Shown piece by piece: positions 1-1,007 of a stretch of 11,180 nucleotides of DNA. Position numbers and translations under genes: made by a program. Within the stretch, counting starts at the first letter, position 1; every line of letters starts with the position of its first letter. The DNA is taken from IMG/VR virus record IMGVR_UViG_2859783438_000004. One strand, 5' to 3'. The notes beneath the pieces were generated by a model. It was not told the origin of the DNA, ran no database searches, and saw nothing but the letters and a program-made list of their open reading frames with translations. This DNA comes from a virus (taxonomy: Duplodnaviria; Heunggongvirae; Uroviricota; Caudoviricetes).

Positions 1-98
1 TATCGCGTCCTCAACAATGAATTTTGAGTAATTGCTCTACAGTCATATTTTTAATTGCGCCCCGGTTAACAAGAGTCCATCCCTGTTCTTCCAGATAA

Positions 99-107
99 AA
101 CCGGAAA
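99..107. repeat. Target site duplication AACCGGAAA, left copy, of mini-IS1 copy 1
   Basis: Identical 9-mer immediately outside both IS1 ends (99-107 and 538-546); 9 bp is the usual IS1 duplication length. Confidence 0.85.
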
Positions 108-537
108 GGTGATGCTGCCAACTTACTGATTTAGTGTATGATGGTGTTTTTGAGGTGCTCCAGTGGCTTCTGTTTCTATCAGCTGTCCCTCCTGTTCAGC
201 TACTGACGGGGTGGTGCGTAACGGCAAAAGCACTGCCGGACATCAGCGCTATCTCTGCTCTCACTGCCGTAAAACATGGCAACTGCAGTTCACTTACACC
301 GCTTCTCAACCCGGTACGGATGGCTGGCCGCTGTATGAATCCCGCCTGAAGGGAAAGCTGCACGTAATCAGCAAGCGATATACGCAGCGAATTGAGCGGC
401 ATAACCTGAATCTGAGGCAGCACCTGGCACGGCTGGGACGGAAGTCGCTGTCGTTCTCAAAATCGGTGGAGCTGCATGACAAAGTCATCGGGCATTATCT
501 GAACATAAAACACTATCAATAAGTTGGAGTCATTACC
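108..537 (+). mobile_element. IS1: Internally deleted IS1 (mini-IS1, 430 bp): both terminal inverted repeats intact, about 338 bp of the interior missing
   Basis: Starts GGTGATGCTGCCAACTTACTGAT and ends ATCAATAAGTTGGAGTCATTACC, the IS1 termini as I recall them; interior jumps from the insA 5' part (..CCCGGTACG, to 318) directly to the insB 3' part (GATGGCTGGCCG.., from 319). Flanked by a 9-bp direct repeat. Confidence 0.9.
163..522 (+). CDS. IS1 InsA N-terminal zinc-finger segment fused in frame to the InsB C-terminal segment (119 aa); lacks the catalytic core, probably not an active transposase
   Basis: GTG start; [52 protein letters not shown] (InsA N-terminus with CxxC..CxxC) joined to [19 protein letters not shown] (InsB C-terminus). 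Confidence 0.7.
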
Positions 538-1007
538 AACCGGAAAGTCTCCATGGTACAGACCCGTGCGCCATCAGGAACGGTTTCGGTGAATCTGATG
601 TTGCCGCGTTCGTCGAAGTGAACAACCAGGGTGCGGCCATCGCCTGGAATTATTTTGTCAGTGGGTGGGGTGTTATTCTGGCGCAGTTCGGCCTCCATGC
701 GATCGAACTCAGCAATGTAGGCTTCTTTAAATGCAGCGGCTTTTTTGCCAGTGAATCCCATCACCAGGAAAACGAAGCCGTTTTTGGTGATTTGGTACAT
801 CGGGCGTTTTTCGCCTTTGGCGTCAGTGTAGGTGACGTCCTCAAAATTGAGGGCGTTAAATTCAGGTGAGCATTCAGTATTTGCGATGGCACGTAACACA
901 TTGTCGTGACGCTTGCCAAAGAACTCTGCGATCGCAATAGACGTAGTGACAGCGCGACCATTTTCGATGGTTACGTCAGGGTGAGAAAGGGCAGGGATAG
1001 TAGCCAT
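516..1007 (-). CDS. Rha-family phage regulatory protein, 3' end disrupted by mini-IS1; last 7 codons and the stop come from IS1 sequence
   Basis: ATG at 1007 preceded by GAGGA; N-terminal motif [17 protein letters not shown] is typical of Rha-family proteins. The 1008-1304 extension in the ORF track has no RBS and is low-complexity. Removing IS1 plus one duplication copy extends the frame to a TGA at 13-11 (185 aa). Confidence 0.6.
538..546. repeat. Target site duplication AACCGGAAA, right copy, of mini-IS1 copy 1
   Basis: Exact match to 99-107. Confidence 0.85.

Follow-up and report, generated by a model that had tools for sequence, protein, structure and literature searches.

IS1 has very probably truncated a Rha-family gene in the prophage analysed here, and removal of the element in silico restores a conserved C-terminus to a protein that starts at the ATG at position 1007. 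The window, by which we mean the whole stretch of 11,180 nucleotides, is a Qin-like cryptic prophage of Shigella sonnei. In the scenario that we favour, IS1 would have inserted at codon 157 of a Rha-family gene of 185 codons and generated a 9-bp target duplication, and the gene would now encode 156 native and seven IS-derived residues without a 29-residue segment at its C-terminus that all close relatives strongly conserve.

An IS1 element interrupts the rha reading frame

IS1 copy 1 occupies positions 108 to 537 on the forward strand, with its ends at 108 (GGTGATGCTGCC...) and 537 (...GAGTCATTACC). In the window it measures 430 bp and consists of IS1 positions 1-211 joined to 547-768, both arms being about 99.5% identical to the IS1 of phage P1. 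A 9-bp duplication is the hallmark of IS1, and the element in the window has both terminal inverted repeats and such a duplication: AACCGGAAA is found at 99 to 107 and again, as an exact direct repeat, at 538 to 546. This duplication also borders a full-length IS1 in S. sonnei 53G. The second IS1 copy in the window (site 1773-2220) is bordered by a different duplication, AAACGGTTG. A composite transposon, in which two direct IS1 copies would carry DicF-isrK-C4-rha', was considered and rejected because each IS1 copy has its own target duplication.

The present rha reading frame runs on the reverse strand (516 to 1007) and encodes 163 aa followed by a stop codon: 156 native residues and the tail LVMTPTY, which is read from the right end of IS1 to a TGA at 518-516. 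Codon 157 (Leu TTG; 539, 538, 537) straddles the IS1 junction. The orphaned 3' end of the gene lies at 11 to 98 on the same strand and comprises the final two bases of codon 157, then codons 158-185, which encode (F)YLEEQGWTLVNRGAIKNMTVEQLLKIHC, and a TGA stop at 13-11. The first-pass annotation had proposed that excising IS1 copy 1 restores a full-length Rha gene and that the insertion replaced its last 29 residues with the tail LVMTPTY. Both proposals agree with the frame as read before and after excision: removal of 108-546 yields 185 aa ending in ...METFRFYLEEQGWTLVNRGAIKNMTVEQLLKIHC at the TGA at 13-11, with a tail that matches homologues, and the comparison of 163 with 185 aa means that 29 native residues were swapped for seven encoded by IS1. 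The two lengths hold given a start at 1007, where PGAP instead models proteins of 284 and 262 aa. The frame had been described as ending 21 nt inside IS1, which should read 19 coding nt (537-519), or 22 nt with the stop codon. The exact 163-aa and 262-aa products have been deposited for S. sonnei, on 72 contigs; in 10 blocks of the index, the longest contig of this kind is over 1 Mb.

The lost C-terminal segment is conserved among homologues

Assignment of the protein to the Rha family, as originally labelled, was confirmed by matches to PF09669 (Phage_pRha; 112 bits, E 2e-32, residues 21-105, curated cut-off 29.9) and TIGR02681 (123 bits, E 4e-36, cut-off 45.95). The Phage_pRha domain at residues 21-105 is intact in the truncated protein. 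The architecture of the closest subfamily, a Rha domain followed by a conserved C-terminal region of about 75 residues, is incomplete in the present frame and complete after excision.

Homologues do not end near the junction: 120 of the 120 listed share the restored C-terminus, each covering 98-100% of the restored 185 aa, and the only ones among these 120 that stop at the junction are Shigella fragments cut off by the end of a contig. E. coli RMDEC465 has the very same last 35 residues as the restored protein, and E. coli VL7S7 also has an intact allele. In 392 complete E. coli genomes the restored sequence runs without interruption and bears the annotation "Rha family phage regulatory protein". 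Ten positions of the lost segment (G163, W164, N168, I172, M175, T176, V177, Q179, L180 and L181) do not vary among 42 sequences, and in the phrog_995 profile the end of the restored protein aligns to the end of the profile. Variable sites in the 29 lost codons are distributed 6/2/14 over the three codon positions, a third-position bias from which the segment would appear to be under purifying selection. In an AlphaFold2 model built on the 42-sequence alignment, the N-terminal domain is confident and residues 113-185 are unreliable (pLDDT below 56); Foldseek found no match to this model in the PDB at E <= 0.001. When just the C-terminal 75 aa served as query, a word-indexed search returned only 12 fragments, which is uninformative on the wider distribution of this domain.

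The rha gene lies behind an isrK-C4 cassette

The prophage is a truncated Qin-like remnant without the integrase arm, and its genes are ordered DUF1391/ydfA, a DicF-like RNA, dicB, ydfD (DUF1482), ydfE and then an IS. The RNA is called only DicF-like because its 38.8 bits fall below the Rfam gathering score of 48. Within the early-left operon, the isrK-C4-rha locus is flanked by DicF and dicB. The window also contains the cognate Qin-like repressor (3656-4186). The Qin prophage of E. coli K-12, with its dicA-dicC-ydfABC-dicF-dicB-ydfD-ydfE region, shares this gene order and the left-end truncation, and to our knowledge no isrK-C4-rha cassette separates its dicF from dicB.

Upstream of rha, on the same strand, we identified an isrK-type sRNA at 1177 to 1253 (RF01394, 61.2 bits, gathering score 50) with an intrinsic terminator at 1199-1182, and a C4-type antisense RNA at 1065 to 1152 (RF01695, 76.7 bits, gathering score 45) that ends 57 nt before the ATG at 1007. 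Directly upstream of isrK, a consensus scan placed a candidate sigma-70-like promoter, TTGAAA-17-TATAGT, at 1260 to 1288 on the reverse strand; it is unvarying in ten Shigella and E. coli loci and differs in phage TL-2011c. Scans of nine E. coli homologue loci found C4 in every one, and phage TL-2011c has it too; the isrK and C4 pair precedes every close homologue as well as the gene of TL-2011c and AnrP of Gifsy-1.

The translation-initiation region of rha (1015 to 1025, reverse strand) contains the Shine-Dalgarno sequence GAGGA at 1019-1015, which is overlapped by a 9-nt C4 target, UCACUCGAG (1025-1017). The loop of the second C4 hairpin, CUCGAGUGA (1108-1100), is the reverse complement of this region over 9 nt without mismatch. 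A single-stranded segment of isrK, UUACUCGAG (1213-1205), matches the rha target in sense and is therefore predicted to pair with the C4 loop as well. The loop covaries with the target, with eight distinct loop sequences in 11 loci. Across these 11 loci, cognate duplexes between loop and initiation region span 8-10 nt (mean 9.5) versus a mean of 5.0 for non-cognate pairs, of which two reach 10 nt. Taken together, the promoter would drive the isrK-type sRNA, then the C4-type antisense RNA and, 57 nt further on, rha; the C4 loop should base-pair with the Shine-Dalgarno region and block translation of rha; and isrK RNA, carrying a copy of the target sequence, could compete for C4.

With isrK and C4 upstream, Rha occupies the antirepressor position of a cassette of the P1 immI or Gifsy-1 isrK-anrP type. 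The earlier description of the protein as antirepressor-like thus gains support from its position directly behind the cassette (PMC4825925). By this analogy we lean towards Rha being an antirepressor-like regulator, and the rha product would be the protein effector of an RNA-gated cassette arranged as in P1 c4-ant and Gifsy-1 isrK-anrP.

Comparison with known systems

In P1 immI, a C4-family RNA is made from the same transcript as its target, one of its loops is the complement of the ribosome-binding region in the antirepressor operon that follows, and a second complementary copy lies upstream of c4. The window likewise has a C4-family RNA, a loop directed against a ribosome-binding region and a second complementary copy upstream. 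Unlike P1 immI, the window shows a single hypervariable antisense loop, its other hairpin carrying a GNRA-type tetraloop; it also lacks an icd-like leader gene, and the Shine-Dalgarno sequence overlapped by the target is that of rha. The immI locus of phages P1 and P7 consists of c4 antisense RNA, icd and ant (Citron and Schuster 1990, cited in PMC7313666).

AnrP induces the Gifsy-1 prophage, and IsrK gates the translation of AnrP (Hershko-Shalev et al. 2016, PMC4825925). The isrK-orf45(STnc1160)-anrP locus shares with the window the order of promoter, isrK with terminator, C4-type RNA and, about 55 nt downstream, an antirepressor-like gene; Rfam finds isrK and C4 in both, and in both the isrK RNA bears sequence complementary to C4. 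The Rfam family c4-a1b1 also overlaps isrK in Gifsy-1. The two loci differ in the N-terminal domain of the effector, which is Rha (PF09669) here and ORF6N (PF10543) in AnrP, in the separate orf45, which is missing here because the equivalent frame enters rha without a stop, and in position, the Gifsy-1 locus adjoining the Q antiterminator and ours lying between DicF and dicB. The two proteins resemble each other weakly: BLASTP of Rha against AnrP (STM2616) gave E values of 0.018-0.068, the C-terminal region of Rha weakly resembles phrog_2379 of AnrP (E 3.8e-7), and hhalign of the Rha type against the AnrP type recovered the same C-terminal stretch at a probability of 2.5%, with shallow alignments. 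In the seqA-CI-seqC immunity of satellite phage P4, CI terminates transcription of replication genes (PMC4825925). The succession of upstream target, processed antisense RNA and downstream target in that system (PMC4825925) has a counterpart here, as read from sequence, but the downstream target is the translation-initiation region of a Rha gene.

Length of the element, start of the gene and function of the truncated product

A complete IS1 is 768 bp long and carries insA and insB, the transposase being produced by frameshifting. Compared with this form, the element in the window is incomplete and lacks IS1 212-546, and the deletion leaves an InsA-InsB' fusion ORF of 119 aa (163-522, within IS1 copy 1) in frame. 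The first-pass annotation called the element a mini-IS1; a 430-bp form is truly present in the window, but its "mini" nature is probably an assembly artefact. The fusion ORF was found in one assembly only, S. sonnei CP029794.1 (GCA_002073875.2), where all 8 further IS1 copies are the identical 430 bp and the 10 exact copies seen are alike base for base. Both window sites hold a 768-bp IS1 in S. sonnei 53G, AGRD01000039 and CP060117, which are otherwise 100% identical here and have the same duplication at the rha site. The deletion junction (...GGTACG|GATGGC...) was found in none of 5,426 E. coli genomes, searched with a 47-nt query able to seed only across it, in none of 185,579 species representatives, and in no other genome searched. 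A 430-bp form confined to one assembly and identical at every copy examined is most likely the result of assembly collapse rather than biology. We regard it as very unlikely that the element is a real non-autonomous mini-IS1 that was moved in trans or spread by gene conversion in one strain. In favour of such an element are its two intact terminal inverted repeats, the separate 9-bp duplications of most copies, and the fusion ORF kept in frame by the deletion; against it, the 768-bp IS1 at the same sites elsewhere means that the insertions predate the strain, so every copy would have needed an identical later deletion, and the chromosome of CP029794.1 measures 4.54 Mb versus 4.99 Mb for 53G. 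CP029794.1 seems to contain systematically collapsed IS1 copies, from which readers could wrongly propose mini-IS1 or MITE biology.

Whatever the length of the element, the extent of the protein depends on its start, and the ATG at 1007, with GAGGA at a 7-nt spacing, is well supported as the best choice. PGAP begins 99 codons upstream (1008 to 1304, reverse strand), giving 262 aa here and 282-284 aa in intact homologues, and the 262- and 284-aa models traverse isrK and C4. That the real protein is this longer form from ATG 1304 (284 aa when intact), or an orf45-like fusion from ATG 1169 or 1148, strikes us as highly improbable. In all ten close loci aligned, no stop codon interrupts the frame from 1304 and indels are of 3 nt only, the extension gives a match to Pfam PF10554 (Phage_ASH) at E 5.5e-14, and a 45-codon ORF in the equivalent region of Gifsy-1 is translated and coupled to anrP (PMC4825925). 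However, the isrK promoter, isrK with its terminator, and C4 take up the extension, and we therefore judge it to be non-coding. Variable sites are spread evenly over codon positions in the extension (27/29/26) and in its orf45-like part (17/20/16), compared with 53/37/111 in rha; no Shine-Dalgarno sequence was found at the in-frame upstream ATGs at 1169, 1148 and 1064; the 184-aa form of E. coli, those of Salmonella and phage TL-2011c become homologous 0-12 nt before ATG 1007; and the TL-2011c gene is annotated from the equivalent methionine. The conclusion on the C-terminus of rha stands even under a longer start. With the start at 1007, the truncated 163-aa protein could still be functional if the seven-residue IS tail were tolerated, the insertion having changed little for the protein, but we consider this unlikely. 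Residues 1-156, including the whole Phage_pRha domain, are unaltered, the truncated ORF is identical across S. sonnei assemblies, and Rha N-domains pair with many C-terminal regions, as in Stx phages, where similarity stops at about residue 111. The identity among S. sonnei strains, however, reflects the youth of the clone and not selection, the lost segment has its ten invariant positions and a coding-type substitution pattern, and natural homologues ending at the junction are confined to the Shigella contig-end fragments among the 120 listed. Judged from this conservation pattern, the scales tip slightly towards a truncated Rha that would be inactive or unstable.

Consequences for the prophage and for genome annotation

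The disruption of rha is ordinary IS-driven decay in a Shigella prophage. In S. sonnei, more IS insertion sites belong to IS1 than to any other element (Hawkey et al. 2020, PMC7373316). As in the gene inactivations by IS1 described in Shigella (PMC7373316), the element lies within a coding sequence and is flanked by a 9-bp duplication; unlike in those cases, the target is a prophage regulatory gene and not a metabolic one. It is plausible, as first suggested, that the insertion altered prophage control, and IS1 may also uncouple dicB and later genes from upstream transcription.

Two points concern public annotation. The gene is probably an unflagged pseudogene: public S. sonnei genomes name the truncated product "Rha family phage regulatory protein" (262 aa), a name that carries no mark of the disruption. 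In addition, the Rha entries of E. coli and Shigella probably include hundreds that are overlong by about 99 codons. The upstream parts of the 262-284-aa models, and with them the Phage_ASH match, seem to arise from translating two sRNA genes, isrK and C4.

A bolder reading, which we rate as quite unlikely, is that isrK-C4-rha is a portable RNA-addressed antirepressor cassette whose RNA pair still acts in trans in S. sonnei. An address of about 9 nt, present in isrK, the C4 loop and the rha Shine-Dalgarno region, would change in concert at all three sites, with at least eight variants in 11 loci. If this were true, only the protein effector would have been destroyed, the remnant would be an RNA-only immunity or decoy module and not dead DNA, and the RNA pair would target incoming or resident phages with the same address. 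Independently of this reading, the concerted variation of the address at three sites is a clean natural dataset on which the specificity of C4-type antisense RNAs can be tested.

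IS1 interrupts rha and replaces the end of its product

The minus-strand ORF of the Rha-family gene (rha) runs from ATG 1007-1005 to TGA 518-516 and encodes 163 aa. IS1 copy 1 occupies 108-537, starting GGTGATGCTGCCAACTTACTGAT and ending AAGTTGGAGTCATTACC, and its 9-bp flanks at 99-107 and 538-546 are both AACCGGAAA; a Leu codon spans the IS1/rha junction. The first-pass annotation had the ORF end 21 nt inside IS1. The ORF does end inside the element, but its stretch there is 19 coding bases long and reaches 22 once the stop is counted. When 108-546 (the IS and one copy of the duplication) was deleted in silico, the frame went on via FYLEEQGWTLVNRGAIKNMTVEQLLKIHC to TGA 13-11 and gave 185 aa, as proposed earlier. 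With 185 aa after excision against 163 aa now, 29 native residues have therefore been exchanged for seven IS-encoded ones.

Residues 21-105 of the restored protein match the Phage_pRha domain (PF09669, E 2e-32), and the protein also matches TIGR02681. A search of 5.8 billion proteins returned 2,356 matches at E <= 1e-10, and all 120 of these that were listed cover 98-100% of the 185 aa; homologues do not end near the IS junction. When 18 sequences were aligned, the restored tail matched ...FRFYLEKQGWTLVNRxAIKNMTVEQLLKIHC residue by residue, and the truncated protein diverged precisely at residue 157. The lost segment contains ten invariant positions in a 42-sequence alignment, and the restored end aligns to the profile end of PHROG family 995. 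The IS-free restored DNA is uninterrupted in 392 of 5,426 complete E. coli genomes, with the best match in VL7S7 (97.3%, full length); the final 35 restored residues are identical to those of RMDEC465, and S. flexneri has a nearly identical gene whose C-terminus is intact. Among ten aligned loci, variable sites at the three codon positions number 53/37/111 over the whole gene and 6/2/14 over codons 157-184 (the last 28 compared), a pattern that is the signature of translated, selected sequence. Judged by these sequence comparisons, the restored C-terminus is the real one.

The short IS1 in the window and the second copy

Letter-for-letter copies of the 163-aa product, and of the 262-aa PGAP model, are on record for Shigella sonnei, and 72 contigs carry the deposited products, including the 4.99-Mb 53G chromosome. 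This S. sonnei pseudogene has no flag in the annotation, which is of modest practical interest. The window was aligned to three S. sonnei assemblies (53G HE616528.1, AGRD01000039 and CP060117). Window 1-1992, with the Rha region, is 100% identical to all three, save for 335 bases absent from the middle of each window IS1, and the remainder shows 99.86-99.98% identity. At both sites the three assemblies have a complete 768-bp IS1 with the same duplications. The window element is IS1 1-211 fused to 547-768 with a 3-nt overlap (ACG), 430 bp in all, and encodes a 119-aa InsA-InsB' fusion that is recorded in only one assembly, GCA_002073875.2 / CP029794.1 (4.54 Mb). Identical 430-bp copies were found at all eight further places examined in CP029794.1 (L020-L027). 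The deletion junction had no match in 5,426 E. coli genomes, using a probe unable to seed on full-length IS1, and the exact junction 29-mer was absent from 185,579 species-representative genomes. A real mini-IS1 would need the same deletion to have arisen in every ancestral full-length copy and is far less likely than a systematic assembly collapse, which we consider the explanation with high confidence. If so, this one assembly probably has collapsed IS1 copies that mimic a mini-IS1 or MITE. The conclusion on Rha is unaffected by IS1 length, since all assemblies agree in the IS1 right end and in the duplication.

IS1 copy 2 (1782-2211) is base-identical to copy 1 and has its own duplication, AAACGGTTG, at 1773-1781 and 2212-2220. 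A composite transposon carrying 538-1781 was ruled out because each IS1 has a separate target duplication. The two direct-orientation copies bracket these 1,244 bp, which hold a DicF-like sRNA, isrK, C4 and the 5' part of rha, and homologous recombination between them would delete 538-1781. Copy 2 splits a plus-strand ORF (1741-2375) that on excision gives 66 aa (MTKEEFVSYIFDKTVEMYAATYGSCNPLNKPEGKDDFDKIYRFLEDRYIKSLEDAGIKSPVKSPLS), with AAGGAA ahead. The divergent DicF-like sRNA and its terminator (1500-1548, minus strand) score 38.8 bits (E 1e-6), under the Rfam gathering score of 48; among the scanned loci of E. coli homologues, four have DicF above threshold at the equivalent place. A weak STnc100-like match (1335-1488) follows it.

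The start codon of rha

PGAP models of intact E. coli homologues are 282-284 aa long and start at the equivalent of ATG 1304; the S. sonnei model is 262 aa. Within the 297 nt between 1304 and 1007 lie, all on the minus strand, a promoter-like site (1288-1260), an isrK-type sRNA with an intrinsic terminator (1253-1177, 61.2 bits) and a C4-type antisense RNA (1152-1065, 76.7 bits), and the minus-strand extension 1008-1304 coincides with the isrK promoter, isrK and C4. Variable sites in this stretch are spread 27/29/26 by codon position (17/20/16 in the orf45-like part). A Shine-Dalgarno sequence, GAGGA, stands seven bases before ATG 1007, and none was found at the in-frame ATGs 1169, 1148 and 1064. 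Homology to the 184-aa E. coli form, the Salmonella forms and Stx phage TL-2011c starts 0-12 nt before ATG 1007, and the TL-2011c annotation starts at the equivalent Met. The Pfam match to Phage_ASH (PF10554, E 5.5e-14) falls entirely within the RNA-gene stretch. Because of the RNA genes, the lack of codon-position bias, the Shine-Dalgarno sequence, the limit of homology and the placement of Phage_ASH, we consider the 1304 start an over-extension. Oddly, the upstream frame is open in all ten loci with indels of 3 nt only, and a longer translated Rha form is therefore retained, as an unlikely reading. The 'Ash' family match here resembles translation of RNA genes; as a by-product, these gene models and the Pfam family probably translate sRNA genes.

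Three co-varying RNA segments upstream of rha

isrK and C4 are immediately upstream in every close homologue examined; in two Rha loci that are more distant, an RNA of the sRNA-Xcc1 type takes their place. Elements of this type (RF02221) lie at L003 2869-2958, L006 2867-2956 and L014 2282-2365. They stand just upstream of rha in the more distant loci, from Salmonella and for an E. coli 184-aa form, and in TL-2011c one also occurs downstream of rha. Structured RNAs of different types seem interchangeable ahead of Rha-type genes.

Three hypervariable short segments on the minus strand co-vary in an alignment of 11 loci with eight loop variants (L001, L002 and L007-L014 included): an isrK single-stranded segment (1213-1205, UUACUCGAG), the C4 second hairpin loop (1108-1100, CUCGAGUGA) and nine bases overlapping the rha Shine-Dalgarno (1025-1017, UCACUCGAG). 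In each of the 11 loci, the C4 loop is reverse-complementary to the initiation region of the same locus. Contiguous pairing between the two is 8-10 nt (mean 9.5) in cognate combinations, against an average of 5.0 in non-cognate ones, across the eight loop sequences, and the isrK segment pairs over 6-8 nt with its own C4 loop. Together the co-varying segments look like an exchangeable RNA 'address' in antirepressor control, and the series offers a clean natural dataset on C4-type antisense specificity, of modest practical interest.

Earlier work has described the Rha family as well as C4, isrK and the cassette they form. The pairing scheme seen here follows the same logic as P1/P7 c4-ant and P4 seqA-CI-seqC. 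Gifsy-1 has the same isrK/C4 pair, 54 nt upstream of AnrP (STM2616); there, IsrK turns on the translation of AnrP, which in turn induces the prophage (PMC4825925). The N-terminal domain of AnrP is ORF6N whereas that of the window effector is Rha, and their C-terminal likeness is weak (phrog_2379 E 3.8e-7, BLASTP E 0.02-0.07, hhalign 2.5%). We therefore did not adopt Rha as an AnrP homologue; by position and control, it probably works like an AnrP/Ant-type effector.

Consequences in a remnant prophage

The insertion has left the RNA switch, promoter and Rha domain whole; the conserved C-terminal segment alone is missing. Target specificity in antirepressor-like proteins of this general class is usually assigned to their variable C-terminal part. 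The high conservation seen here argues that the lost tail matters, and the truncated Rha is most likely inactive or unstable. dicB starts just past window position 1; because IS1 insertions are strongly polar, dicB and later genes are probably uncoupled from upstream promoters. IS1 copy 2 would likewise cut the DicF-like RNA, isrK, C4 and rha off from the immunity-region promoter.

The right part of the window carries repressor, cro-like, YdaT, replication, DUF1627 and DUF977 genes and a PstI/BsuBI-type restriction-modification pair. This type II pair (8656-11180, plus strand) comprises a 610-aa Eco57I/N6_Mtase-type methylase and a BsuBI/PstI-type endonuclease whose gene extends past the window end; the called methylase products are shorter in comparison loci L018 and L019 (435 and 466 aa), and in L019 about 1.8 kb are missing between window 7229 and 9077. 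A PaaA2/ParE-type toxin-antitoxin pair (3156-3350, minus strand; L017 7331-7815) lies between the prophage repressor gene and a DUF1391 (ydfA-like) gene.

At the prophage left end, ydfE and an IS adjoin the host ynf/dms genes, and no integrase or excisionase was found there. In Shigella, no agent disrupts genes more often than IS1 (PMC7373316), and the interruption of rha, correctly and well observed in the first-pass annotation, is a fresh instance. The prophage is already a remnant; thus the 'altered prophage control' suggested earlier can only mean that resident toxic or regulatory genes are expressed differently, or that there is cross-talk with other phages, and not that a viable phage is induced.
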